DNA from: Megasphaera elsdenii DSM 20460
GTDB lineage: Bacteria > Bacillota > Negativicutes > Veillonellales > Megasphaeraceae
Length of the DNA stretch: 32,000 bases
NCBI RefSeq assembly: GCF_003010495.1
Contig: NZ_CP027570.1
Coordinates: 1,110,001 to 1,142,000 of the forward strand
Direction: 5' to 3'
Shown: piece after piece, positions 6,268 to 25,918 of the stretch
How the letters are laid out: every line of letters begins with the position of its first letter
Numbering within the stretch: position 1 is the stretch's first letter
Translations under genes and position numbers: made by a program
The notes under the pieces: model-generated
The model's database searches: none
Told to the model about the DNA's origin: nothing
Seen by the model: the letters and a program-made list of their open reading frames with translations, nothing else

Positions 6268-7224
6268 ATGGAGCAGAGGCGTGTCACGCCGCTGACGACG
6301 GCCGGCTGTTTTGCCGCCATTATGCTGGTCTTTGCGCTTCTCAGTACATACGTGCCGATTTTTTCTTTTATTGGTTATTTCATCATGCCCATTCCCATGG
6401 TCATCATTTTCATGAAATACGGCCTGCGCCAGGCCTTGCTCCTGGGCGTGACTGTGGGCTTCCTCATGGGGCTGTTCATCGATCCGGTGACAGCGCTGGT
6501 CCAGTTCCTGAGTTTTGGGGCTGTCGGCCTGACCTTGGGGGCGGGCTTCCGCTATGAATGGTCGGCTGTGCGCTTATTGGGAACCGTCACGGCGGCCCTG
6601 GTCGCCGTCTTCGTCGTCATCACACTCTTGTCCTATGTCGTCCTGGATGTCAATCTCTTCACCCAGATGAATGACTTCTTTACGCAGTTCATGGACAACA
6701 TGATGGCCCAGTACCAGCAGCAGGGCATGTCCGATGTCAAACTGGCCGAAACGCGGGCCCAGCTCAACCAGGTCCGGGAGATGCTGCCGTCTCTGCTGCC
6801 TATGTTCCTCTGCCTGGGGACAGCCATCATCGCCTATGCGAACATCAAGGTTTCCCAGGTCGTCCTGCGCCGGCTCGGCTTCTCGCTTAAGGCTTTTTTA
6901 CCTATCCGTTATTGGGAAATCCCCCGCAGTATGATATACTTATATATATTGGCCTTGGTCATGAAATACTGGGGAGTGACGCGGGATATTGCCTGGCTTA
7001 ATATCATCGGCATGAATCTCAATCAGATTGCCTTCTTCTTCATCTGTATCCAGGGGATTGCCTTTGTCTTTTATCTCCTCAGCCGCCGTTTCCATTTAGG
7101 GAATGGCCTTCAGGCCCTGATCCTCATCTCATTTTTTGTCATGCCTGTTTTTTCGTATGCTGCCTTTTTAGCCGGCATCTTCGACATGCTCACGAATTAT
7201 AGAAAAAAAGGTCGTACGCTTTAG
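6268..7224 (+). CDS. yybS: YybS-family integral membrane protein (DUF2232)
   Basis: Polytopic hydrophobic protein immediately upstream of gdpP-rplI-dnaB, the conserved Firmicutes yybS position. ATG 6268 lies after AAGGGGG. Confidence 0.7.
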   Translation: MEQRRVTPLTTAGCFAAIMLVFALLSTYVPIFSFIGYFIMPIPMVIIFMKYGLRQALLLGVTVGFLMGLFIDPVTALVQFLSFGAVGLTLGAGFRYEWSAVRLLGTVTAALVAVFVVITLLSYVVLDVNLFTQMNDFFTQFMDNMMAQYQQQGMSDVKLAETRAQLNQVREMLPSLLPMFLCLGTAIIAYANIKVSQVVLRRLGFSLKAFLPIRYWEIPRSMIYLYILALVMKYWGVTRDIAWLNIIGMNLNQIAFFFICIQGIAFVFYLLSRRFHLGNGLQALILISFFVMPVFSYAAFLAGIFDMLTNYRKKGRTL

Positions 7225-7242
7225 TACGCAGGGGGCGGAACC

Positions 7243-9258
7243 ATGTTTAAAACATTGCTGTCAAGGCGGTCGGAAGAGCCATTCTTCCTGATTACGGTCT
7301 TGCTGCTTATCATCATTGCCGTATATAATTGGGTCATCGCCTTATTGGCGCTGATCCTCATTGGCGGAGCCTATGTCCTGACCCGCAAGAACCACAACGA
7401 ACGCAACCGGGAAATCAGCCAGTTCTTTGATGCGATTTCCAAGAGCGTCGACCAGGCTTCGACCTATGCGGTACAGAATTTGCCTATCGGCATAGCCATC
7501 ATCGACATGCAGTCCAACTTGTGCTGGGCCAACAGCGTCTTCCGCGACTGGGTCGGCGACATCGACAACGACCAGCAGCTGGACCATATCATGCCGAATT
7601 TGAAAGTCGATAAGTTCTGGGGGAAATCGGGGTATTTCTTTGAGCATATCGGCGAACGCTATTACCGCGTCGTCTACAAGTATTTGCAGACAGAAGCCGC
7701 CGAAGACGATAACTATCTCATCCTCTATTTTGAAGATATTACCGATACGGAACGGCAGAAGCTAAATTCCCTGGCGGCTGTCCCCGTTTTCTGCGATATC
7801 GAGATCGACAACCTGGAAGAAGTGGCCAAGGGGATGACGGCCGTCCAGCGGGCTACGCTGGTGACCAACGTCAACAACTGCCTCATCGGCGAACTATCCG
7901 GCCATAATTGCTTCATCTGGGCTTATGGCAATGAAAAATATATTGCCTGCATGAGCCGGGACACGTTGGAATATTATAAGGAAGACAATTTTTCTTTCCT
8001 GGAAAAGATACGTTCCATACATACGGTCAACCGCATCCCGGTGACGCTCAGTATGGGCATTGCCCTCTTCCCGAGCGAAGTCATTGCAGCTGGTAAGGCC
8101 AATTTCAGTGAACTGGCTACGAAAGCCCGAGCTGGCCTCGATCTGGCTCTGGGCCGCGGCGGCGACCAGGTCGTCGTCTATGAAGAAGACGGGTCGCCTC
8201 ATTTTTATGGCGGCAAGACGCGCTGCGTCGAAAAGAACACCCGCGTCCGGGCCCGCGTCGTCGCCCAGGCGATCCACGAACTCATCGATACGTGCGACAT
8301 GGTCCTGGTCATGGGCCATGAACGGGAAGATTACGACAGCATCGGTGCTGCCGTCGGCGTGGCCCACATGGCCCGTCTGGCAGGCAAGCCTGTACACGTC
8401 GTCGTCAGCAACCAGACCGATGCCATCCGGCGCCTGGAAAACCAGATCATGGACAATCCGGACTTCAAGGACCTGCTCATTTCGGCGGAAACGGCCGAGA
8501 ACATCTGCAACAGCCAGACCCTGCTGTTCATCGTCGATACCCATCGCCCGGACATGACCGTTGCGCCGGCCTTGCTGGAAGAAACGGACCGCCGCGTCGT
8601 CATCGACCATCACCGCCGCAGTTCGGACTTCATCAAGAAGCCCCTGCTGACCTATACGGAAACGTCGAGCTCTTCGACGAGTGAATTGGTCACGGAACTC
8701 TTGCAGTATTTCCAGGAAGATGTAGAATTGTCTAAGATAGAGGCGACAGCCCTCTATGCCGGCATCATCGTCGACACTAAGAACTTCGCTGTCCAGACCG
8801 GCGTCCGCACCTTTGATGCCGCGTCGTACCTGCGCCGCTGCGGGGCCGATCCCGATATCGTCCGCGAACTGTTCAGCTGCGATTTCGATACGGTCAAGGA
8901 CAGGGCCGCTATTTTGTCGGGCGCCCAGATCAGCGACGGTGTCGCCATGGCCAGCTGTCCCAAGGGACAGCAAAATGCTACGATCATTGCCGCTCAGGTC
9001 GCGGATATGCTGATCAACATCGACCATGTCGAAGCCAGCTTCACCTTCTATTATCTCGCCGATGACTGCATCGGCGTCAGTGCCCGCTCCAAGGGCGAAA
9101 TCAATGTGCAATTAGTCATGGAAGCCCTGGGCGGCGGCGGTCATCGCACGGTGGCCGGTGCCCAGCTCCGTGGCCGTACCCTGGCGGAAGCTCAGGGAGA
9201 CGTCATGGCAGCGCTCCATGAAATCATAGACAAAGATAAGGAGATTGATGAAAAATGA
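7243..9258 (+). CDS. gdpP: Cyclic-di-AMP phosphodiesterase GdpP (TM-PAS-degenerate GGDEF-DHH/DHHA1)
   Basis: Two N-terminal TM helices. DHH motifs are present (VIDHHRR, IVDT) along with the DHHA1 motif GGGGH. It occupies the conserved position between yybS and rplI. Confidence 0.88.
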   Translation: MFKTLLSRRSEEPFFLITVLLLIIIAVYNWVIALLALILIGGAYVLTRKNHNERNREISQFFDAISKSVDQASTYAVQNLPIGIAIIDMQSNLCWANSVFRDWVGDIDNDQQLDHIMPNLKVDKFWGKSGYFFEHIGERYYRVVYKYLQTEAAEDDNYLILYFEDITDTERQKLNSLAAVPVFCDIEIDNLEEVAKGMTAVQRATLVTNVNNCLIGELSGHNCFIWAYGNEKYIACMSRDTLEYYKEDNFSFLEKIRSIHTVNRIPVTLSMGIALFPSEVIAAGKANFSELATKARAGLDLALGRGGDQVVVYEEDGSPHFYGGKTRCVEKNTRVRARVVAQAIHELIDTCDMVLVMGHEREDYDSIGAAVGVAHMARLAGKPVHVVVSNQTDAIRRLENQIMDNPDFKDLLISAETAENICNSQTLLFIVDTHRPDMTVAPALLEETDRRVVIDHHRRSSDFIKKPLLTYTETSSSSTSELVTELLQYFQEDVELSKIEATALYAGIIVDTKNFAVQTGVRTFDAASYLRRCGADPDIVRELFSCDFDTVKDRAAILSGAQISDGVAMASCPKGQQNATIIAAQVADMLINIDHVEASFTFYYLADDCIGVSARSKGEINVQLVMEALGGGGHRTVAGAQLRGRTLAEAQGDVMAALHEIIDKDKEIDEK

Positions 9259-13175: not shown

Positions 13176-13251
<76 letters not shown>

Positions 13252-13257
13252 GTAAAT

Positions 13258-13343
13258 GGTGGGGTTCCCGAGTGGCTAAAGGGAGCAGACTGTAAATCTG
13301 CCGGCGTTTGCCTTCGAAGGTTCGAATCCTTCCCCCACCACCA
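13258..13343 (+). tRNA. tRNA-Tyr (anticodon GUA), long variable arm, CCA encoded
   Basis: Acceptor GGTGGGG/CCCCACC, anticodon loop CTGTAAA, a 14-nt variable arm, T loop TTCGAAT. Confidence 0.9.
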
Positions 13344-13348
13344 ATTAT

Positions 13349-13424
<76 letters not shown>

Positions 13425-13481
13425 AATTTTTTTACTGCAAGGTAAAAAACAACTTCATAATTGGCTTTGACCAGTTCATAA

Positions 13482-13557
13482 GCTGTTGTAGCTCAGTCGG
13501 TAGAGCGTATCCTTGGTAAGGATAAGGTCACCGGTTCAATCCCGGTCAATAGCTCCA
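13482..13557 (+). tRNA. tRNA-Thr (anticodon GGU), CCA encoded
   Basis: Acceptor GCTGTTG/CAATAGC, anticodon stem TATCC/GGATA with loop TTGGTAA, T arm ACCGG-TTCAATC-CCGGT. Confidence 0.9.
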
Positions 13558-13562
13558 CACAT

Positions 13563-13639
13563 GGCGGCTTAGCTCAGTTGGCTAGAGCATGCGGTTCATA
13601 CCCGCAGTGTCCAGAGTTCGAATCTCCGAGCCGCCACCA
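13563..13639 (+). tRNA. Elongator tRNA-Met (anticodon CAU)
   Basis: Acceptor GGCGGCT/AGCCGCC, anticodon loop TTCATAC. This is not initiator-like because 1:72 is paired. The anticodon arm resembles Firmicutes elongator Met rather than Ile2, though Ile2-lysidine cannot be formally excluded. There is one A:C mismatch in the T stem. Confidence 0.8.
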
Positions 13640-15012: not shown

Positions 15013-15049
15013 AAAAAGAGGCTGTCGCATATGCGGCGGCCTCTTTTTT
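15013..15049 (+). terminator. Rho-independent terminator of tuf
   Basis: AGAGGC-TGT-CGCATATGCG-GCG-GCCTCT is followed by T6. Confidence 0.85.
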
Positions 15050-16236: not shown

Positions 16237-16244
16237 GGAAAGAA

Positions 16245-16274
16245 AAGGGGCTGTCGCACGCGCGACAGCCCCTT
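16245..16274 (+). terminator. Hairpin after mscS (CTGTCGC-family), no T tract
   Basis: AAGGGGCTGTCGC-acgc-GCGACAGCCCCTT forms a 13-bp stem. Confidence 0.55.
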
Positions 16275-16518: not shown

Positions 16519-18039
16519 ATGGTATTTTTATTGGCACTGTCACCGATTCTGTGGCTCATCATCTCGCTGGGCTTCTTGAAGATGCAAAGCTTCAAGGCTT
16601 GTCCGATTGCACTCATCATTTCTTTTGCTGTCGCCCTGGCTTGGTATCATATGCCTGGCATGGATGCCGCTACGGCTGCTCTGGAAGGCGTGGCCCTGGC
16701 ATGCTGGCCTATCTTGCTGGTCATCATCGCCGCTATCTTTACGTATAATCTGACGCTGTACACCAAGAGCATGGACATCGTCAAGCACATGTTGACGACG
16801 GTCAGCAAGGACCGCCGCGTCCTGGCCCTGCTCATCGGCTGGGGCTTCGGTGCCTTCATGGAAGGCATGGCCGGCTTTGGTACGGCTATCGCTATCCCGG
16901 CCTCGATGTTGGTTGCCATGGGTTTCGACCCGATCAAGGCCATCCTGGTCTGCCTGGTCGCTAACTCCGTTCCTACGACGTATGGTTCCATTGGTATTCC
17001 GGCCAGCACTTTGGCTAACTTGACAGGTATCGATCCGGTACAGCTGTCGACATACATCAGCTTGCAGCTCTTGCCGCTCAATATCCTTTGCCCGTTCATC
17101 ATCGTCGCCATCGTCGGCGGATCGCTGAAAGCCCTCAAAGGCGTCTTCATGATCACCCTGCTTTCGGCCCTGGGTCTGGCTGTGCCGGAACTCATCGTTT
17201 CGTCTTTTGTCGGCCCGGAACTGGCTGTCATGGGTGCGTCCATTGTCATCATGGCCCTCATCGTCGTCTATTCCCATTTCCGTCCTGTCAATGATCCGGA
17301 ATATGCCATGGACATCAACCCGGCTCACGTACCGCTCCGCGGCGGTCTGCTGGCTTGCCTGCCCTTCATCTTGATCTTCGTCTTCTTACTGTTGACGTCG
17401 AAACTCGTTCCTTTCATCCATGCTCCGCTCATGGCTATTAAATCGTCGGTCCTCATCTATACCGGTCAGGGCGGCGTACCTTATACCTTCATCTGGGTCA
17501 ATACACCGGGTATCCTCATTCTCCTGGCTGCCTTCATCAGCGGCAAAGCCCAGTCGGCCCGCTTCAGTGAAATGTTCTTCGTCTTGCTGAACACCATCAA
17601 AGGCCTCCGCAATACGATCATCACCATCATTGCCGTCATCGCTACGGCGAAAGTCATGGGCTACAGCGGCATGACATCGGATATCGCCCGCACGGCTGTC
17701 GAAGCGACGGGTATGATGTATCCGGCCATTGCACCGCTCATCGGCTCTGTCGGCACGTTCATCACCGGTTCCGGTACGTCCAGTAACGTCCTCTTCGGCA
17801 ACCTCCAGACCGATGCTGCTGCCGCCATCAATGCCAATAAAGCCTGGCTGGCCGCTGCCAACTCGGCTGGTACCTGCGCGGGCAAGATGATTTCGCCGCA
17901 AAGTATCGCCATTGCCGTCGGGGCCATCTCCCTGACCGGCAAGGATAACGAAATCCTTCAGGCAATCATGAAAGTCTATGTACCATATATCATCCTCTTA
18001 GGGGCCATCGTCTACTTCGGACAGGTCCTGGTAGGGTAG
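16519..18039 (+). CDS. lctP: L-lactate permease (LctP family)
   Basis: A 506-aa polytopic protein. The EGMAGFGTAIAIPASMLVAMGF motif is typical of LctP/LldP. It sits beside the lactate-utilisation genes. Confidence 0.85.
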   Translation: MVFLLALSPILWLIISLGFLKMQSFKACPIALIISFAVALAWYHMPGMDAATAALEGVALACWPILLVIIAAIFTYNLTLYTKSMDIVKHMLTTVSKDRRVLALLIGWGFGAFMEGMAGFGTAIAIPASMLVAMGFDPIKAILVCLVANSVPTTYGSIGIPASTLANLTGIDPVQLSTYISLQLLPLNILCPFIIVAIVGGSLKALKGVFMITLLSALGLAVPELIVSSFVGPELAVMGASIVIMALIVVYSHFRPVNDPEYAMDINPAHVPLRGGLLACLPFILIFVFLLLTSKLVPFIHAPLMAIKSSVLIYTGQGGVPYTFIWVNTPGILILLAAFISGKAQSARFSEMFFVLLNTIKGLRNTIITIIAVIATAKVMGYSGMTSDIARTAVEATGMMYPAIAPLIGSVGTFITGSGTSSNVLFGNLQTDAAAAINANKAWLAAANSAGTCAGKMISPQSIAIAVGAISLTGKDNEILQAIMKVYVPYIILLGAIVYFGQVLVG

Positions 18040-18043
18040 GGAA

Positions 18044-18075
18044 AAAGGGACTGTCGCACATGCGACAGTCCCTTT
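18044..18075 (+). terminator. Terminator hairpin of lctP (CTGTCGC-family)
   Basis: AAAGGGACTGTCGCA-ca-TGCGACAGTCCCTTT forms a stem of about 14 bp, followed by TTTC. Confidence 0.65.
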
Positions 18076-18083
18076 CAAGTTGT

Positions 18084-18269
18084 TAGTGGCTAGCAGTTAG
18101 TGGTTAGTAGATGGTTTTAAATTTAAATGTTTTGCTGAAAGCTACAAACTTCATACTACAGACTATAAGGAGAAAGGGGCCTCACATAATAGCATGTGCT
18201 TTTGTGTGACAGCCCCTTTTCAGATGATTCAGGCGAGCCACGAACCACTAGCCACGAACCACTAGTCAC
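18084..18269. repeat. Intergenic element E3 flanked by inverted heptamer arrays
   Basis: The left array is TAGTGGC TAGCAGT TAGTGGT TAGTAG (18084-18110). The reverse complement of the right array (18235-18269) is TAGTGGT TCGTGGC TAGTGGT TCGTGGC. The interior is AT-rich and carries the hairpin AAAGGGGC...GCCCCTTT (18173-18220). Confidence 0.75.
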
Positions 18270-18600
18270 AAAACTTCCCTTTACGAACTATTCTATAACG
18301 AAAGAATAAGTGCCGTTTTTCACATACTATAACGAATTATCATGCTTGGTTTTCAACAGTACTTTTTGGTCATGGCTATTTTACAGGGGTTTCCTAATTT
18401 ATGATAAATAGTATCATTTTATTTTTGGGAATATTTGCTTTGAATGTCATTTATATGGCCATATATAGCTGTTTTCGTGGACAGAAAGGGTACGATTATC
18501 TTTTATATAAATAATTATAAATATCAAAATTTATAATTCTAAAGTGGAATGGATTTGTGCATTTTCCATGCATTTTAACTAATTTATCACGATTTATTCA

Positions 18601-18629
18601 TTGACGTTATGGATTTTCCATGATATCAT
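18601..18629 (+). promoter_or_regulatory. Probable promoter of the pct-lcd operon (TTGACG-17-TGaTATCAT)
   Basis: -35 at 18601-18606, an exact 17-nt spacer ending in TGA, and -10 TATCAT at 18624-18629. This predicts a leader of about 85 nt. Confidence 0.6.
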
Positions 18630-18645
18630 TCTAGTCAGTAATTCA

Positions 18646-18668
18646 CCTTTGGAAAATTTTCACAAAGG
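18646..18668. promoter_or_regulatory. 23-nt near-perfect palindrome in the pct leader, candidate operator
   Basis: The sequence is CCTTTG-GAAAATTTTC-a-CAAAGG. The core GAAAATTTTC is a perfect palindrome and the flanks are exact complements. It lies about 10-35 nt downstream of the predicted start site. Confidence 0.45.
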
Positions 18669-18720
18669 CAGTACGACAGAAGCGTCGATACATTCCATTT
18701 AGCAGGAGGAAGTTACGGTA

Positions 18721-20274
18721 ATGAGAAAAGTAGAAATCATTACAGCTGAACAAGCAGCTCAGCTCGTAAAAGACAACGACACGATTACGTCTATCGGCTT
18801 TGTCAGCAGCGCCCATCCGGAAGCACTGACCAAAGCTTTGGAAAAACGGTTCCTGGACACGAACACCCCGCAGAACTTGACCTACATCTATGCAGGCTCT
18901 CAGGGCAAACGCGATGGCCGTGCCGCTGAACATCTGGCACACACAGGCCTTTTGAAACGCGCCATCATCGGTCACTGGCAGACTGTACCGGCTATCGGTA
19001 AACTGGCTGTCGAAAACAAGATTGAAGCTTACAACTTCTCGCAGGGCACGTTGGTCCACTGGTTCCGCGCCTTGGCAGGTCATAAGCTCGGCGTCTTCAC
19101 CGACATCGGTCTGGAAACTTTCCTCGATCCCCGTCAGCTCGGCGGCAAGCTCAATGACGTAACCAAAGAAGACCTCGTCAAACTGATCGAAGTCGATGGT
19201 CATGAACAGCTTTTCTACCCGACCTTCCCGGTCAACGTAGCTTTCCTCCGCGGTACGTATGCTGATGAATCCGGCAATATCACCATGGACGAAGAAATCG
19301 GGCCTTTCGAAAGCACTTCCGTAGCCCAGGCCGTTCACAACTGTGGCGGTAAAGTCGTCGTCCAGGTCAAAGACGTCGTCGCTCACGGCAGCCTCGACCC
19401 GCGCATGGTCAAGATCCCTGGCATCTATGTCGACTACGTCGTCGTAGCAGCTCCGGAAGACCATCAGCAGACGTATGACTGCGAATACGATCCGTCCCTC
19501 AGCGGTGAACATCGTGCTCCTGAAGGCGCTACCGATGCAGCTCTCCCCATGAGCGCTAAGAAAATCATCGGCCGCCGCGGCGCTTTGGAATTGACTGAAA
19601 ACGCTGTCGTCAACCTCGGCGTCGGTGCTCCGGAATACGTTGCTTCTGTTGCCGGTGAAGAAGGTATCGCCGATACCATTACCCTGACCGTCGAAGGTGG
19701 CGCCATCGGTGGCGTACCGCAGGGCGGTGCCCGCTTCGGTTCGTCCCGCAATGCCGATGCCATCATCGACCACACCTATCAGTTCGACTTCTACGATGGC
19801 GGCGGTCTGGACATCGCTTACCTCGGCCTGGCCCAGTGCGATGGCTCGGGCAACATCAACGTCAGCAAGTTCGGTACTAACGTTGCCGGCTGCGGCGGTT
19901 TCCCCAACATTTCCCAGCAGACACCGAATGTTTACTTCTGCGGCACCTTCACGGCTGGCGGCTTGAAAATCGCTGTCGAAGACGGCAAAGTCAAGATCCT
20001 CCAGGAAGGCAAAGCCAAGAAGTTCATCAAAGCTGTCGACCAGATCACTTTCAACGGTTCCTATGCAGCCCGCAACGGCAAACACGTTCTCTACATCACA
20101 GAACGCTGCGTATTTGAACTGACCAAAGAAGGCTTGAAACTCATCGAAGTCGCACCGGGCATCGATATTGAAAAAGATATCCTCGCTCACATGGACTTCA
20201 AGCCGATCATTGATAATCCGAAACTCATGGATGCCCGCCTCTTCCAGGACGGTCCCATGGGACTGAAAAAATAA
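18721..20274 (+). CDS. pct: Propionate CoA-transferase (lactate/propionate:acetyl-CoA CoA-transferase)
   Basis: A 517-aa family I CoA-transferase with the catalytic Glu region LTVEGGAIGGVP. From memory the sequence matches the Megasphaera Pct used in polylactate engineering. RBS is AGGAGGA. Confidence 0.92.
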   Translation: MRKVEIITAEQAAQLVKDNDTITSIGFVSSAHPEALTKALEKRFLDTNTPQNLTYIYAGSQGKRDGRAAEHLAHTGLLKRAIIGHWQTVPAIGKLAVENKIEAYNFSQGTLVHWFRALAGHKLGVFTDIGLETFLDPRQLGGKLNDVTKEDLVKLIEVDGHEQLFYPTFPVNVAFLRGTYADESGNITMDEEIGPFESTSVAQAVHNCGGKVVVQVKDVVAHGSLDPRMVKIPGIYVDYVVVAAPEDHQQTYDCEYDPSLSGEHRAPEGATDAALPMSAKKIIGRRGALELTENAVVNLGVGAPEYVASVAGEEGIADTITLTVEGGAIGGVPQGGARFGSSRNADAIIDHTYQFDFYDGGGLDIAYLGLAQCDGSGNINVSKFGTNVAGCGGFPNISQQTPNVYFCGTFTAGGLKIAVEDGKVKILQEGKAKKFIKAVDQITFNGSYAARNGKHVLYITERCVFELTKEGLKLIEVAPGIDIEKDILAHMDFKPIIDNPKLMDARLFQDGPMGLKK

Positions 20275-20300
20275 ATCTCTGCTGTAAAGGAGACTTTACT

Positions 20301-21215
20301 ATGAAACCAATGAGACTACATCACGTAGGCATTGTCCTGCCGACCTTAGAAAAAGCCCATGAATTCATGCAGAATAATGGACTTGAAATCGACTATGCCG
20401 GCTATGTCGATGCTTACCAGGCTGATCTCATTTTCACTAAGTTTGGTGAATTTGCCAGCCCGATTGAAATGATTATCCCGCACTCCGGTGTGCTTACCCA
20501 ATTCAATGGTGGCCGCGGCGGCATTGCCCACATCGCCTTCGAAGTGGACGATGTCGAAGCTGTCCGCCAGGAAATGGAAGCAGATTGTCCGGGATGCATG
20601 TTAGAAAAGAAAGCTGTCCAGGGTACGGACGACATTATCGTCAACTTCCGCCGCCCGACAACCAACCAGGGTATCCTCGTTGAATATGTTCAGACGACAG
20701 CACCTATCACCGGCCGCGGCGAAAATCCTTTCGTTAAGAATCTCGGCCCGGAAAAAGGGAAGCTCAACGAAACATGGCATCCCATGCGCCTGCACCATAT
20801 CGGCATCGTCTTGCCGACCTTGGAAAAGGCCCATGAATTCATCAAGACCAATGGTCTGGAAGTGGATTATTCCGGTTTCGTCGACGCCTACCATGCGGAT
20901 CTCATTTTCACTAAAAAAGGTGAAAACAGTACGCCTATCGAATTCATTATTCCCCGTGAAGGGGTCCTCAAAGATTTCAATCATGGCAGGGGAGGTATCG
21001 CTCATATCGCCTTTGAAGTGGATGATGTCGAAAAGGTACGTCAGATTATGGAAAGCCAGAAGCCTGGTTGCATGCTCGAAAAGAAAGCCGTCCGGGGAAC
21101 GGACGATATCATCGTCAACTTCCGCCGTCCCAGCACGGACGCCGGCATCCTCGTCGAATATGTCCAGACCGTAGCTCCCATCAATCGCAGCAATCCCAAC
21201 CCTTTTAATGATTGA
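20301..21215 (+). CDS. Tandem-duplicated VOC-superfamily protein, methylmalonyl-CoA-epimerase-like (two modules in one chain)
   Basis: Residues 3-137 and 161-295 are about 79% identical (106/135 by hand). Each module carries LHH(V/I)GIV, GGIAHIAFEVDD and GILVEYVQ, the metal-ligand positions of MCE-type enzymes. RBS AAGGAG. It lies inside the pct-lcd operon. Confidence 0.8.
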   Translation: MKPMRLHHVGIVLPTLEKAHEFMQNNGLEIDYAGYVDAYQADLIFTKFGEFASPIEMIIPHSGVLTQFNGGRGGIAHIAFEVDDVEAVRQEMEADCPGCMLEKKAVQGTDDIIVNFRRPTTNQGILVEYVQTTAPITGRGENPFVKNLGPEKGKLNETWHPMRLHHIGIVLPTLEKAHEFIKTNGLEVDYSGFVDAYHADLIFTKKGENSTPIEFIIPREGVLKDFNHGRGGIAHIAFEVDDVEKVRQIMESQKPGCMLEKKAVRGTDDIIVNFRRPSTDAGILVEYVQTVAPINRSNPNPFND

Positions 21216-21231: not shown

Positions 21232-22017
21232 GTGAAAACTGTGTATACTCTCGGAATCGACGTTGGTTCTTCTTCTTCCAAGGCAGTCATCCTGGAAGAT
21301 GGCAAGAAGATCGTCGCCCATGCCGTCGTTGAAATCGGCACCGGTTCGACCGGTCCGGAACGCGTCCTGGACGAAGTCTTCAAAGATACCAACTTAAAAA
21401 TTGAAGACATGGCGAACATCATCGCCACAGGCTATGGCCGTTTCAATGTCGACTGCGCCAAAGGCGAAGTCAGCGAAATCACGTGCCATGCCAAAGGGGC
21501 CCTCTTTGAATGCCCCGGTACGACGACCATCCTCGATATCGGCGGTCAGGACGTCAAGTCCATCAAATTGAATGGCCAGGGCCTGGTCATGCAGTTTGCC
21601 ATGAACGACAAATGCGCCGCTGGTACGGGCCGTTTCCTCGACGTCATGTCGAAGGTACTGGAAATCCCCATGTCTGAAATGGGGGACTGGTACTTCAAAT
21701 CGAAGCATCCCGCTGCCGTCAGCAGTACCTGCACGGTTTTTGCTGAATCGGAAGTCATTTCCCTTCTTTCCAAGAATGTCCCGAAAGAAGATATCGTAGC
21801 CGGTGTCCATCAGTCCATCGCCGCCAAAGCCTGCGCTCTCGTGCGCCGCGTCGGTGTCGGTGAAGACCTGACCATGACCGGCGGTGGCTCCCGCGATCCC
21901 GGCGTCGTCGATGCCGTATCGAAAGAATTAGGTATTCCTGTCAGAGTCGCTCTGCATCCCCAAGCGGTGGGTGCTCTCGGAGCTGCTTTGATTGCTTATG
22001 ATAAAATCAAGAAATAA
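21232..22017 (+). CDS. lcdC: Lactoyl-CoA dehydratase activator (2-hydroxyacyl-CoA dehydratase activase, HgdC family)
   Basis: YTLGIDVGSSSSK (ASKHA ATPase) and DKCAAGTGRF plus SSTCTVFAESEV (the Cys pair for the bridging 4Fe-4S cluster), closely parallel to Acidaminococcus HgdC. GTG 21241 is an alternative start with better SD spacing. Confidence 0.9.
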   Translation: MKTVYTLGIDVGSSSSKAVILEDGKKIVAHAVVEIGTGSTGPERVLDEVFKDTNLKIEDMANIIATGYGRFNVDCAKGEVSEITCHAKGALFECPGTTTILDIGGQDVKSIKLNGQGLVMQFAMNDKCAAGTGRFLDVMSKVLEIPMSEMGDWYFKSKHPAAVSSTCTVFAESEVISLLSKNVPKEDIVAGVHQSIAAKACALVRRVGVGEDLTMTGGGSRDPGVVDAVSKELGIPVRVALHPQAVGALGAALIAYDKIKK

Positions 22018-22038: not shown

Positions 22039-23325
22039 ATGAGTGAAGAAAAAACAGTAGATATTGAAAGCATGAGCTCCAAGGAAGCCCTTGGTTACTT
22101 CTTGCCGAAAGTCGATGAAGACGCACGTAAAGCGAAAAAAGAAGGCCGCCTCGTTTGCTGGTCCGCTTCTGTCGCTCCTCCGGAATTCTGCACGGCTATG
22201 GACATCGCCATCGTCTATCCGGAAACTCACGCAGCTGGTATCGGTGCCCGTCACGGTGCTCCGGCCATGCTCGAAGTTGCTGAAAACAAAGGTTACAACC
22301 AGGACATCTGTTCCTACTGCCGCGTCAACATGGGCTACATGGAACTCCTCAAACAGCAGGCTCTGACAGGCGAAACGCCGGAAGTCCTCAAAAACTCCCC
22401 GGCTTCTCCGATTCCCCTTCCGGATGTTGTCCTCACTTGCAACAACATCTGCAATACCTTGCTCAAATGGTATGAAAACTTGGCTAAAGAATTGAACGTA
22501 CCTCTCATCAACATCGACGTACCGTTCAACCATGAATTCCCTGTTACGAAACACGCTAAACAGTACATCGTCGGCGAATTCAAACATGCTATCAAACAGC
22601 TCGAAGACCTTTGCGGCCGTCCCTTCGACTATGACAAATTCTTCGAAGTACAGAAACAGACACAGCGCTCCATCGCTGCCTGGAACAAAATCGCTACGTA
22701 CTTCCAGTACAAACCGTCGCCGCTCAACGGCTTCGACCTCTTCAACTACATGGGCCTCGCCGTTGCTGCCCGCTCCTTGAACTACTCGGAAATCACGTTC
22801 AACAAATTCCTCAAAGAATTGGACGAAAAAGTAGCTAATAAGAAATGGGCTTTCGGTGAAAACGAAAAATCCCGTGTTACTTGGGAAGGTATCGCTGTCT
22901 GGATCGCTCTCGGCCACACCTTCAAAGAACTCAAAGGTCAGGGCGCTCTCATGACTGGTTCCGCTTATCCTGGCATGTGGGACGTTTCCTACGAACCGGG
23001 CGACCTCGAATCCATGGCAGAAGCTTATTCCCGTACATACATCAACTGCTGCCTCGAACAGCGCGGTGCTGTTCTTGAAAAAGTTGTCCGCGATGGCAAA
23101 TGCGACGGCTTGATCATGCACCAGAACCGTTCCTGCAAGAACATGAGCCTCCTCAACAACGAAGGCGGCCAGCGCATCCAGAAGAACCTCGGCGTACCGT
23201 ACGTCATCTTCGACGGCGACCAGACCGATGCTCGTAACTTCTCGGAAGCACAGTTCGATACCCGCGTAGAAGCTTTGGCAGAAATGATGGCAGACAAAAA
23301 AGCCAATGAAGGAGGAAACCACTAA
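22039..23325 (+). CDS. lcdA: Lactoyl-CoA dehydratase alpha subunit (HgdA family)
   Basis: A 428-aa HgdA/HadB/LcdA-type protein, about 48 kDa as for the C. propionicum alpha subunit. It follows the activator and is translationally coupled to the next gene. Confidence 0.88.
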   Translation: MSEEKTVDIESMSSKEALGYFLPKVDEDARKAKKEGRLVCWSASVAPPEFCTAMDIAIVYPETHAAGIGARHGAPAMLEVAENKGYNQDICSYCRVNMGYMELLKQQALTGETPEVLKNSPASPIPLPDVVLTCNNICNTLLKWYENLAKELNVPLINIDVPFNHEFPVTKHAKQYIVGEFKHAIKQLEDLCGRPFDYDKFFEVQKQTQRSIAAWNKIATYFQYKPSPLNGFDLFNYMGLAVAARSLNYSEITFNKFLKELDEKVANKKWAFGENEKSRVTWEGIAVWIALGHTFKELKGQGALMTGSAYPGMWDVSYEPGDLESMAEAYSRTYINCCLEQRGAVLEKVVRDGKCDGLIMHQNRSCKNMSLLNNEGGQRIQKNLGVPYVIFDGDQTDARNFSEAQFDTRVEALAEMMADKKANEGGNH

Positions 23326-24443
23326 TGAGTCAGATCGACGAACTTATCAGCAAATTACAGGAAGTATCCAACCATCCCCAGAAGACGGTTTTGAATTATA
23401 AAAAACAGGGTAAAGGCCTCGTAGGCATGATGCCCTACTACGCTCCGGAAGAAATCGTATATGCTGCAGGCTACCTCCCGGTAGGCATGTTCGGTTCCCA
23501 GAACCCGCAGATCTCCGCAGCTCGTACGTACCTTCCTCCGTTCGCTTGCTCCTTGATGCAGGCTGACATGGAACTCCAGCTCAACGGCACCTATGACTGC
23601 CTCGACGCTGTTATCTTCTCCGTTCCTTGCGACACTCTCCGCTGCATGAGCCAGAAATGGCACGGCAAAGCTCCGGTCATCGTCTTCACACAGCCGCAGA
23701 ACCGTAAGATCCGCCCGGCTGTCGATTTCCTCAAAGCTGAATACGAACATGTCCGTACGGAATTGGAACGTATCCTCAACGTAAAAATCTCCGACCTGGC
23801 TATCCAGGAAGCTATCAAAGTATATAACGAAAACCGTCAGGTTATGCGTGAATTCTGCGACGTAGCTGCTCAGTACCCGCAGATCTTCACTCCGGTAAAA
23901 CGTCATGACGTCATCAAAGCCCGCTGGTTCATGGACAAAGCTGAACACACCGCTTTGGTCCGCGAACTCATCGACGCTGTCAAGAAAGAACCGGTACAGC
24001 CGTGGAATGGCAAAAAAGTCATCCTCTCCGGTATCATGGCAGAACCGGATGAATTCCTCGATATCTTCAGCGAATTCAACATCGCTGTCGTCGCTGACGA
24101 CCTCGCTCAGGAATCCCGCCAGTTCCGTACAGACGTACCGTCCGGCATCGATCCCCTCGAACAGCTCGCTCAGCAGTGGCAGGACTTCGATGGCTGCCCG
24201 CTCGCTTTGAACGAAGACAAACCGCGTGGCCAGATGCTCATCGACATGACTAAGAAATACAATGCTGACGCCGTCGTCATCTGCATGATGCGTTTCTGCG
24301 ATCCTGAAGAATTCGACTATCCGATTTACAAACCGGAATTTGAAGCTGCTGGCGTTCGTTACACGGTCCTCGACCTCGACATCGAATCTCCGTCCCTCGA
24401 ACAGCTCCGCACCCGTATCCAGGCTTTCTCGGAAATCCTCTAA
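23325..24443 (+). CDS. lcdB: Lactoyl-CoA dehydratase beta subunit (HgdB family)
   Basis: A 372-aa protein of about 42 kDa. Its start overlaps the lcdA stop (TAATG). It belongs to the 2-hydroxyglutaryl-CoA dehydratase D-component family. Confidence 0.88.
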   Translation: MSQIDELISKLQEVSNHPQKTVLNYKKQGKGLVGMMPYYAPEEIVYAAGYLPVGMFGSQNPQISAARTYLPPFACSLMQADMELQLNGTYDCLDAVIFSVPCDTLRCMSQKWHGKAPVIVFTQPQNRKIRPAVDFLKAEYEHVRTELERILNVKISDLAIQEAIKVYNENRQVMREFCDVAAQYPQIFTPVKRHDVIKARWFMDKAEHTALVRELIDAVKKEPVQPWNGKKVILSGIMAEPDEFLDIFSEFNIAVVADDLAQESRQFRTDVPSGIDPLEQLAQQWQDFDGCPLALNEDKPRGQMLIDMTKKYNADAVVICMMRFCDPEEFDYPIYKPEFEAAGVRYTVLDLDIESPSLEQLRTRIQAFSEIL

Positions 24444-24648: not shown

Positions 24649-25797
24649 ATGGAATTCAAACTTTCTGAATTACAGCAAGATATCGCAAATCTCGCAAAAG
24701 ATTTCGCAGAAAAAAAATTAGCTCCCACTGTCAAAGAACGTGACGAAAAAGAAGTTTTCGATCGTGCTATCCTTGACGAAATGGGTACTCTCGGCCTTCT
24801 CGGTATTCCCTGGGAAGAAGAAAACGGCGGCGTAGGCGCTGACTTCCTCAGCCTCGCAGTTGCTTGCGAAGAAGTAGCTAAAGTTGACCCCTCCATCGCT
24901 CTCAGCTTCGAAGTACACACCATGCTCTGCTCCTGGCCGATTTGGAAATTTGGCACAGCTGAACAGAAAGCTAAATTCCTCAAACCCCTCGCAGAAGGCA
25001 CAAAACTCGGCGCTTTCGGCCTTACTGAACCGAACGCTGGTACCGACGCTTTGAACGGTTCCACCGTTGCTACGAAAAACGAAGACGGCAGCTACACCTT
25101 GAACGGCTCCAAAGTCTTCAACACCAACGGCGGCGAAGCTGACGTTACCGTCGTATTCGCTTCCACGGACAAATCCAAAGGCGCTAAAGGCATGAGCGCT
25201 TTCATCCTCGAAAAAGGTATGGAAGGCTTCACCTATGGCAAAGAAGAAGTTAAAATGGGTATCCGCGCTTCCGTACAGCGTGAACTCGTATTCCAGAACG
25301 TAAAAGTTCCGGCTGAAAACCTCCTCGGCAAAGAAGGCGAAGGCTTCAAGATCGCTATGATGACCCTCGACGGCGGCCGTGTTGGCGTTGGCGCACAGGC
25401 TCTCGGCATTGCGGAAGGCGCTTACAATGCAGCTGTTCAGTATGCTAAAGAACGTACACAGTTCGGCAAACCGATCGCTAAATTCCAGGCTATCAGCTTC
25501 ATGCTCGCTGACATGAAACTCAAAATCGAAACGGCTCGCCTCGCTGTCTACAAAGCAGCTTGGAAAATGGCTCAGCCCGACGTTAAATCCTACTCCGTAG
25601 ACGCAGCTATCGCTAAGAAATACGCTTCTGACGTAGCTATGCAGGTCACCACCGATGCTGTCCAGGTATTCGGCGGCTATGGCTTCACTCGCGAATACCC
25701 GGTTGAACGCTACATGCGCGACGCTAAGATCACTCAGATCTACGAAGGTACCAACCAGGTACAGCAGATGGTTATCTCCGGCGCAATCCTCAGATAA
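24649..25797 (+). CDS. Short-chain acyl-CoA dehydrogenase (candidate acryloyl-CoA reductase / propionyl-CoA dehydrogenase component)
   Basis: A 382-aa protein with GAFGLTEPNAGTDA and C-terminal QIYEGTNQVQQMVISGAILR (catalytic Glu). It looks like a paralogue of butyryl-CoA dehydrogenase and lies downstream of lcdCAB. Confidence 0.88.
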   Translation: MEFKLSELQQDIANLAKDFAEKKLAPTVKERDEKEVFDRAILDEMGTLGLLGIPWEEENGGVGADFLSLAVACEEVAKVDPSIALSFEVHTMLCSWPIWKFGTAEQKAKFLKPLAEGTKLGAFGLTEPNAGTDALNGSTVATKNEDGSYTLNGSKVFNTNGGEADVTVVFASTDKSKGAKGMSAFILEKGMEGFTYGKEEVKMGIRASVQRELVFQNVKVPAENLLGKEGEGFKIAMMTLDGGRVGVGAQALGIAEGAYNAAVQYAKERTQFGKPIAKFQAISFMLADMKLKIETARLAVYKAAWKMAQPDVKSYSVDAAIAKKYASDVAMQVTTDAVQVFGGYGFTREYPVERYMRDAKITQIYEGTNQVQQMVISGAILR

Positions 25798-25880: not shown

Positions 25881-25918
25881 AAAGAGAGGCTGTCGCCGAT
25901 GCGACAGCCTCTCTTTTT
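25881..25918. terminator. Bidirectional terminator between acd and the panE-like gene (CTGTCGC-family)
   Basis: AAAGAGAGGCTGTCGC-cgat-GCGACAGCCTCTCTTT is followed by TT. The A tract upstream and the T tract downstream serve both strands. Confidence 0.8.

Follow-up and report, generated by a model that had tools for sequence, protein, structure and literature searches.

The acrylate pathway takes D-lactoyl-CoA only, and most available lactate is L or racemic; how, then, can L-lactate reach the pathway? The question is raised by a locus of Megasphaera elsdenii DSM 20460 that lies in the window, a stretch of 32,000 nucleotides (contig NZ_CP027570.1, positions 1,110,001 to 1,142,000) to which all window coordinates below refer. 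Here a gene of the vicinal oxygen chelate (VOC) family, made of two units that resemble methylmalonyl-CoA epimerase (MCE), is found on the + strand at 20301..21215, between pct, the gene of a propionate/lactate CoA-transferase, and the lcd genes of a 2-hydroxyacyl-CoA dehydratase. The 2-hydroxyacyl-CoA dehydratases accept (R)-2-hydroxyacyl-CoA only, and enzymes of the MCE type abstract the acidic C2 proton from an acyl-CoA that is bound to a metal via two oxygens. We consider it fairly probable, judging from sequence and structural models, that the VOC protein is a metal-dependent acyl-CoA epimerase of the MCE type, orthologous to LapB of Coprococcus catus, and a putative lactoyl-CoA epimerase. 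An earlier note, made from the letters of this DNA, had arrived at the same function, which we too infer from the fold, the metal ligands and the gene context; as set out below, the proposal was already in print. If true, an epimerase working at the level of the thioester would complete the map of the pathway, explain why the gene travels with pct and lcd across phyla, and add a new reaction to the VOC/MCE family. The removal of lactate by Megasphaera and Coprococcus is relevant to rumen acidosis and to propionate supply in the human gut, and engineered routes to acrylate, 3-hydroxypropionate and polylactate, which employ Pct and Lcd from Megasphaera or Clostridium, require that the chirality of lactoyl-CoA be controlled.

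The gene has an ATG start and codes for 304 residues, identical to UniProt G0VND7_MEGEL (‘Glyoxalase family protein’, Megasphaera elsdenii) and to the protein named ‘MULTISPECIES: VOC family protein [Megasphaera]’ at NCBI. Unit 1 (residues 1-137, 20301..20711) and unit 2 (residues 161-295, 20781..21185) are joined by a linker (residues 138-160, 20712..20780), all on the + strand. Pfam Glyoxalase_4 (PF13669) matches two stretches of the protein with 105.1 bits against a cut-off of 27 (E = 3e-30), as expected of a VOC protein, and the predicted secondary structure of each unit is beta-alpha-beta-beta-beta, twice. The motifs LHH(V/I)GIV, GGIAHIAFEVDD and GILVEYVQ are found in both units, in keeping with the earlier note, which had read from such motifs the His/His/Glu metal-ligand positions of MCE-type enzymes. 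There are four such positions per unit, on strands 1, 4, 5 and 8: H8 (20322-20324), E56 (20466-20468), H77 (20529-20531) and E128 (20682-20684) in unit 1, and H166 (20796-20798), E214 (20940-20942), H235 (21003-21005) and E286 (21156-21158) in unit 2. All four residues are invariant in the 41 sequences from which we built a family profile, and both units of 14 of the 14 two-unit proteins aligned retain them, so the loss of ligands that the note had named as a possible refutation was not seen.

Structure prediction, likewise suggested there, gave a confident model of the full chain (AlphaFold2; pLDDT 91.1, pTM 0.88), with two barrels of beta-alpha-beta-beta-beta x2 topology and a linker of about 25-30 residues in which short helices are modelled at 143-148 and 150-153. 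When one unit was modelled by itself (pLDDT 91.0), MCE structures were its best matches, with TM-scores of 0.77-0.84 and root mean square deviations of 2.1-2.8 A. The top 20 matches in the PDB comprise the MCE-like BH1468 protein (3oa4) and 19 chains named as MCE (TM-scores 0.76-0.84), the best being 3oa4, 6bu2, 1jc4/1jc5, 6qh4/3rmu and the 6wf6 series. In the models, each unit is a complete MCE-type VOC barrel with its own predicted metal site and with the active site inside one chain. A ‘covalent pseudo-dimer’, as the note had put it, in which the two units would pack like an MCE homodimer, is plausible.

The sequence comparisons agree with the fold. Searched against PDB sequences, the protein itself finds human MCEE at E = 2e-7, and the family profile finds 3oa4 and the MCEs of P. 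shermanii, human, M. tuberculosis and S. coelicolor at E = 4e-14 to 1e-9. In the profile alignment to the P. shermanii enzyme, E56 corresponds to Q65, H77 to H91 and E128 to E141; for H8, the counterpart is the first ligand histidine of 3oa4 and of the human, M. tuberculosis and S. coelicolor enzymes. The printed alignment to 1jc4 begins at residue 55, and H8 is presumably equivalent to H12 of P. shermanii MCE, by those other alignments and the N-terminus of 1jc4. The likeness to MCE (EC 5.1.99.1; 1jc4/1jc5, 3rmu/6qh4, 6bu2, 6wf6) therefore lies in the two-module barrel within one chain and in the four ligand positions, and would extend by analogy to epimerisation at C2 of an acyl-CoA. Against this stand an identity of only 20-30%, a glutamate instead of glutamine as second ligand (human MCEE also has glutamate), and two units per chain where MCE is a homodimer.

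Turning to the gene context, pct (18721..20274, + strand), of CoA-transferase family I by its Pfam CoA_trans match, ends 26 nt before the ATG of the VOC gene. A Shine-Dalgarno sequence can be read 8 nt 5′ of that ATG (AAGGAG, 20287..20292, + strand), and 16 nt separate the VOC stop from the GTG start of the dehydratase activase gene at 21232. A hairpin scan of the + strand found nothing terminator-like in the interval from pct to the activase gene, and its first and only strong hit lies at 25881-25916. With these spacers and ribosome-binding site, all of which the note had already pointed out, the VOC gene is probably co-transcribed with pct and lcd.

The order pct-VOC-activase-lcdA-lcdB, with a two-unit VOC gene between pct and activase, recurs in 12 of 12 genome loci from Megasphaera (elsdenii, massiliensis, intestinihominis, hutchinsoni, lornae and sp.), Anaeroglobus geminatus and related metagenome-assembled genomes (MAGs), as well as in 12 metagenome loci. 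Single-unit relatives (50-72% identical) adjoin a Pct-type CoA-transferase gene, usually together with genes for dehydratase, activase or lactate permease. For instance, pct-VOC-activase-dehydratase alpha/beta is the arrangement in C. homopropionicum and C. botulinum C/novyi, and pct-VOC-activase-lcdA-lcdB is also found in a Fusobacteriaceae MAG and Fusobacterium. Coprococcus catus and Frisingicoccus have the same order with the lactate permease gene last; the former is represented by L056 (160 aa, named ‘VOC family protein [Coprococcus catus]’), which has 54% identity with unit 1 and whose locus reads pct-VOC-act-lcdA-lcdB-lctP, and the protein of the latter, L062, is that of Frisingicoccus caecimuris by exact-sequence look-up. 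The order is changed to pct-activase-VOC-lcdAB in M. vaginalis and to VOC-activase-lcdAB-pct in Intestinimonas- and Faecalispora-like contigs, and in L039 the VOC gene stands immediately 5′ of lcdA with the activase gene divergent. That the linkage to pct and lcd survives several rearrangements argues for functional coupling, and of all the evidence it is the gene context that says most about function. Its breadth, in Clostridium, Fusobacterium, Intestinimonas/Faecalispora-like and Anaerotignum-like assemblies, appears to be undescribed.

A mechanism can be proposed on this basis. Imported lactate would be converted to lactoyl-CoA by Pct, and the VOC protein would interconvert the (S)- and (R)-forms of lactoyl-CoA, and probably those of 2-hydroxybutyryl-CoA too. 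A divalent metal, bound by His8, Glu56, His77 and Glu128, would chelate the thioester carbonyl oxygen and the 2-hydroxyl oxygen of (S)-lactoyl-CoA, and a glutamate would deprotonate C2 to give a metal-bound cis-enediolate, as in glyoxalase I en route to its lactoyl thioester. A second acid would then reprotonate C2 from the opposite face and deliver (R)-lactoyl-CoA to the dehydratase. The metal-bound pair E56/E128 is the likely acid/base pair, given the analogy with glyoxalase I and the fact that the second base of bacterial MCEs is not conserved here. Since the enediolate is the same species as in glyoxalase I, the VOC fold would be a natural host for this epimerisation. As an outcome, L-lactate could pass through acryloyl-CoA to propionate, with no CoA trapped as a dead-end (S)-thioester.

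The idea of a lactoyl-CoA epimerase is sound but already published, the M. elsdenii homologue included. Sheridan et al. (2022; PMC8914356) described in C. catus GD/7 six linked genes, lapA-F, that are induced more than 10 log2-fold on lactate and code for a propionyl-CoA transferase, an MCE homologue, three lactoyl-CoA dehydratase components and a lactate permease. They proposed lapB to encode a putative lactoyl-CoA epimerase and reported homologues of all six genes, lapB among them, in M. elsdenii, and a 2022 review repeats the LapB proposal (PMC11406415); the duplication of the M. elsdenii homologue is not mentioned in PMC8914356. LapB of C. catus (GD-7_01095) is alike in family (about 54% identity to each unit), in its place between pct and activase and in its proposed function, but it consists of one unit only (160 aa, N-terminally extended by a short stretch), whereas the Megasphaera protein has two fused units in 304 residues.

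The same study states that Anaerotignum propionicum lacks lapB and is unable to use L-lactate (PMC8914356). Bearing on this claim is a trio of CoA-transferase, VOC and lactate permease genes that we observe in Anaerotignum/Tyzzerella-like assemblies (L120, 6418-10017; L050, 6986-8969; also L044, L046-L051 and L068), with no dehydratase gene within 8 kb; the permease of L050 consists of two overlapping reading frames and may be frameshifted. When a search was seeded with the Anaerotignum-type protein, no match named A. propionicum was among the best 120, most of which are nameless.

Several points weigh against a lactoyl-CoA epimerase. We found no biochemical characterisation of any family member in the searchable literature, only the 2022 proposal and the review repeating it; this agrees with the earlier note, which was aware of no characterised lactoyl-CoA epimerase, though one was proposed for C. 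catus in that year. Lactate racemase activity has been attributed to M. elsdenii, and homologues of the lct cluster, to which a racemase gene belongs, were reported in it, so that an epimerase is not strictly needed for growth on L-lactate. The note had left open whether the epimerase would act instead of, or in addition to, a racemase for free lactate; in view of the reported activity, it would act in addition. Among the annotated large open reading frames of the window there is no larA. Nor is Pct uniform in what it supplies: in yeast, the C. propionicum enzyme gave mostly D-lactyl-CoA and another Pct gave L-lactyl-CoA first (PMC7609957), so the enantioselectivity of these transferases varies. 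Leu43/Leu201 takes the place of the second catalytic glutamate described for bacterial MCEs (P. shermanii E48, S. coelicolor E43), in an alignment of about 25% identity where a shift by one residue is possible. Human MCEE also lacks this glutamate, having valine there in the same alignments, which makes Leu43 a weak discriminator. Finally, the partner that recurs throughout the family would be a Pct-type CoA-transferase and not lactoyl-CoA dehydratase, since a sister clade sits in a different operon, and substrate specificity is for that reason not transferable by homology.

This sister clade comprises single-unit VOC proteins, 57-59% identical, on hundreds of contigs from Lachnospiraceae/Blautia (L110-L113, where the gene lies at 7001-7402, and L014, L053 and L064). 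The conserved operon has genes for a LacI regulator, thiolase, acyl-CoA synthetase, CoA-transferase and the VOC protein (the last two genes overlap by 4 nt), for two 3-hydroxyacyl-CoA dehydrogenases on either side of a branched-chain-type ABC transporter, and a MOFRL/glycerate-kinase-like gene. From its gene content it looks like an undescribed CoA-thioester pathway in need of a C2 epimerase. A CoA-transferase common to both clades fits an enzyme whose substrate is the thioester freshly formed by the transferase, with a specificity that differs between clades.

It is from here that the best of the rival explanations draws its strength, namely that the protein is an epimerase or isomerase of 2-substituted acyl-CoAs which works with a Pct-type CoA-transferase on a physiological substrate other than lactoyl-CoA. 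Candidates would be 2-hydroxybutyryl-CoA (from threonine/2-oxobutyrate), a 2-methyl-branched acyl-CoA, or a side product of Pct in need of repair. The CoA-transferase is the sole neighbour common to both clades, and its gene is tightly joined to the VOC gene not only in the sister clade, before the 3-hydroxyacyl-CoA dehydrogenases and thiolases, but also in loci of the M. intestinihominis type, where pct stop and VOC start overlap (ATGA); at 57-59% identity between clades, specificity is evidently plastic. Yet the further constant partners of the lcd-linked clade are 2-hydroxyacyl-CoA dehydratase and/or lactate permease, and the C. catus gene is induced by lactate itself (PMC8914356). We regard a different substrate as rather unlikely.

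An ordinary methylmalonyl-CoA (or ethylmalonyl-CoA) epimerase, serving the succinate/methylmalonyl-CoA route to propionate, was weighed next. The closest solved relatives are MCEs by sequence as well as fold, the best NCBIfam model is the MCE equivalog TIGR03081, and the genome of M. elsdenii reportedly codes for parts of the succinate route (PMC8914356). However, TIGR03081 scores 78.9 bits against a cut-off of 114.95, even with the two units of the whole protein summed, and identity to MCEs remains in the range given above. No homologue at least 49% identical has a mutase, carboxyltransferase or decarboxylase gene beside it in the loci read, and the close homologues adjoin pct and lcd genes instead, whereas a relative of only 33% identity (L015) sits in a carboxyltransferase-methylmalonyl-CoA mutase-B12 cluster, the canonical setting of MCE. 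This answers the check for a methylmalonyl-CoA neighbourhood proposed in the earlier note, and the profile search that it had also asked for gave the two Glyoxalase_4 stretches and the low TIGR03081 score. Together with the placement beside pct and lcd, and with their co-induction in C. catus (PMC8914356), these results make an ordinary MCE very unlikely.

Lower still we place a CoA-dependent isomerase of the glyoxalase I kind, which would turn the hemithioacetal of methylglyoxal and CoA into (R)-lactoyl-CoA for use by the dehydratase. After the MCEs, the next fold matches of the one-unit model are to the single-chain Ni-glyoxalase I of C. acetobutylicum (3hdp/2qh0), with TM-scores of 0.76-0.83 and E = 2e-8 to 4e-8, and the reaction shares its enediolate with epimerisation of a lactoyl thioester. 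The ligand set His/Glu/His/Glu is that of Ni/Co-type glyoxalase I. The C. acetobutylicum enzyme is thus alike in the topology of its monomeric barrel and in the metal-bound enediolate of a lactoyl thioester, and differs in sequence (18% identity), in thiol partner and in genomic context. The E. coli glyoxalase I (1f9z) reaches a TM-score of only 0.38; its active site is formed across a domain-swapped dimer. Both glyoxalase I models fall well under their cut-offs (TIGR00068, 32.6 against 120; NF050074, 20.8 against 165), and the family profile matches glyoxalase I sequences at E of about 1e-4, against 1e-10 to 1e-14 for MCEs. Moreover, import of lactate and CoA transfer already supply the thioester in this context, and it is lactate that acts as inducer in C. 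catus (PMC8914356). A glyoxalase function is improbable in view of these points.

We turn next to the presence of two units in one chain. The earlier note had described two tandem copies of about 135 residues, 106 of them identical by a hand alignment with an offset of 158 residues, and an ungapped alignment of residues 3-137 with 161-295 returns just these figures (106/135, 78.5%; offset 474 nt). The DNA copies (20307-20711 and 20781-21185), which it had called still alignable, agree at 291 of 405 bases (71.8%), with 112, 116 and 63 of 135 identities at codon positions 1, 2 and 3. Between the units dN is 0.19 and dS about 1.9 by the Nei-Gojobori method (omega ~0.10), and for each unit omega is 0.03 when compared with the orthologue of M. 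elsdenii MSK.21.52. The third codon positions, dS and omega between units mark the duplication as old, with strong purifying selection on both units; the resemblance goes beyond chance and is not that of a recent repeat.

A neighbour-joining tree groups the unit-1 sequences of different species together, and the unit-2 sequences likewise, with the single-unit protein of M. vaginalis (149 aa) as sister to all of them. This topology points to one tandem duplication, with fusion, in the ancestor of the Megasphaera elsdenii/massiliensis/hutchinsoni-Anaeroglobus clade, and the two lineages have been distinct since before Megasphaera and Anaeroglobus split. The two units of one subclade (L011, L035) resemble each other more closely (84-90%), which suggests later homogenisation. 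In a library of 1.84 billion representatives, a single-unit query found 213 proteins at E <= 1e-3 and 8 at E <= 1e-30, and among close relatives there the tandem form occurs in the Megasphaera cluster only. The two-unit form thus seems confined to the Megasphaera/Anaeroglobus clade, and both this form and its single origin appear to be undescribed.

We find 12 fixed differences between unit 1 and unit 2; every one is at a site that also varies in single-unit homologues, and the invariant residues are untouched. Nothing here hints at specificities drifting apart or at either copy being dead; sub-functionalised units, which we considered, are unsupported for the same reason. That one or both units are catalytically inert, as a scaffold or a decaying duplicate, has nothing positive in its favour beyond the general fate of duplicated domains and is hardly credible where both units keep all four ligands and all family-invariant residues, show omega of about 0.03 and were held apart as lineages since before the divergence of Megasphaera and Anaeroglobus. 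Two barrels in one chain are also known from VOC enzymes such as 4-hydroxyphenylpyruvate dioxygenase (HPPD), which give the best full-length matches (TMq 0.61-0.67). At 12-15% identity this match reflects only the number of barrels per chain, and an HPPD-type two-barrel dioxygenase was rejected as a functional lead. HPPD has its metal site in the C-terminal barrel only, whereas the Megasphaera protein retains all ligands in both units.

What is new here is modest: a fused double enzyme with both sites intact, and a CoA-transferase, rather than the dehydratase, as the universal partner of the family. Also apparently undescribed are the one- and three-unit variants discussed below and the sister clade in its different CoA-thioester operon. 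To our knowledge, lactoyl-CoA 2-epimerase activity has no characterised example. A broader reading would join these threads, and we put it forward as possible, if doubtful. The protein would be the first true 2-epimerase of lactoyl-CoA (2-hydroxyacyl-CoA), working through a metal-enediolate of the glyoxalase I type, and would give anaerobes a LarA-free racemisation of lactate at the thioester level; Pct and the VOC protein could lie behind part of the long-reported, lactate-inducible ‘lactate racemase’ activity of M. elsdenii extracts, and the Megasphaera fusion, with its one- and three-unit variants, would be an enzyme whose copy number varies by unequal crossover. Such an enzyme would share with LarA, which carries a nickel-pincer nucleotide, its physiological result, in that both lactate enantiomers reach a D-specific pathway. 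The two differ in that fold and cofactor are unrelated, and LarA transfers a hydride on free lactate where the VOC protein would abstract a proton from a CoA thioester.

Variants in unit number were observed directly. A three-unit version of 463 aa (P0001) is found within a pct-VOC-activase-lcdAB operon and was assembled independently in two samples (L105, 6001-7392 of a 17.9-kb contig, ERZ28572568; L106, 1471-2862, ERZ14212879). The first ~254 nt of its middle unit are identical to unit 3 and the last ~240 nt to unit 1, and units 1 and 3 have a 32-nt exact stretch in common where the identical tracts meet. This is the signature of an unequal crossover between the two units, an assembly loop being the less probable origin. 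A similar case is a single unit of 146 aa on a 2.7-kb contig of 1.4x coverage (L034, 1788-2225), with its N-terminal portion from unit 1, its C-terminal portion from unit 2 and an activase gene directly after it. An unequal crossover would leave such a hybrid as its reciprocal deletion product; the alternative is a collapsed assembly at low coverage.

The VOC gene also differs in history from its neighbours. Between the window and M. elsdenii MSK.21.52 (L006) it has dS = 1.08 and 90.8% amino acid identity, against dS = 0.13-0.31 and more than 99% identity for pct, lcdA, lcdB and the acyl-CoA dehydrogenase gene. Compared with M. intestinihominis (L012), the VOC gene is nearly identical (dS = 0.02) and the pct-VOC junction different: the 26-nt spacer with its ribosome-binding site is present in the window and L006, whereas the pct stop overlaps the VOC start (ATGA) in L012, L026 and L001. 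By these comparisons the locus (20275-21215) is a mosaic, which suggests recombination in and around the VOC gene. Many Pct proteins of 517 aa share a 90%-identity cluster with the 304-aa VOC protein, and the cluster representative, too, is 517 aa long, probably as an artefact of gene calls across the overlapping pct/VOC junction in some genomes.

The other genes of the locus, the promoter-like site and the terminator-like hairpin at 25881..25916 lie on the + strand. A lactate permease gene of the LctP family (16519..18039; Pfam Lactate_perm, E = 3e-120; TIGR00795 over its cut-off) is followed directly by a palindromic hairpin at 18043-18074. About 90 nt 5′ of pct lies a promoter-like site (TTGACG-17-TATCAT with TG, 18601..18629), a pattern match of 10/12 in a consensus scan, and the assignment of pct is supported by named database entries that include ‘propanoyl-CoA transferase Pct [Megasphaera elsdenii]’. 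Downstream of the VOC gene, the dehydratase activase (LcdC/E I type, GTG start, 21232..22017) is assigned by PF01869 (E = 3e-59) and TIGR00241 (256 bits, over the cut-off). Genes for the alpha (LcdA-like, 22039..23325) and beta (LcdB-like, 23325..24443) subunits of the dehydratase both match PF06050 HGD-D, their best NCBIfam models being of the HadB-type alpha and HadC-type beta subunit, respectively. In an early patent that covers the lactyl-CoA dehydratase operon of M. elsdenii, the VOC gene is reportedly named ‘ORF X’. The last gene (24649..25797) codes for an acyl-CoA dehydrogenase with Acyl-CoA_dh domains, a candidate component of acryloyl-CoA reductase, for which the best NCBIfam model, AcrC, gives 453 bits, below its cut-off of 640. 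The strong terminator-like hairpin 3′ of it (25881..25916; 16-bp stem with 9 GC pairs and a T-rich tail) would mark the end of an operon running from pct to the acyl-CoA dehydrogenase gene. As the permease gene has a hairpin of its own, the operon proper is probably pct through the dehydrogenase gene, with the permease probably on a separate transcript. The gap between permease and pct (18040-18720, ~680 nt), which includes both hairpin and promoter-like site, has no open reading frame of at least 80 aa and no Rfam match; it may be the lactate-responsive control region of the operon.

The two hairpins belong to a family of closely alike, GC-rich palindromes at 15014-15045, 16243-16274, 18043-18074 and 25881-25916, with the core GGCTGTCGC-N4/5-GCGACAGCC and A-rich/T-rich flanks. 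Each lies just 3′ of a stop codon, those of tuf, mscS, lctP and the acyl-CoA dehydrogenase gene, and together they look like a reused bidirectional terminator element. The Rfam scan of the window returned five tRNAs only, and their genes are clustered at 13176-13636, just 5′ of tuf.

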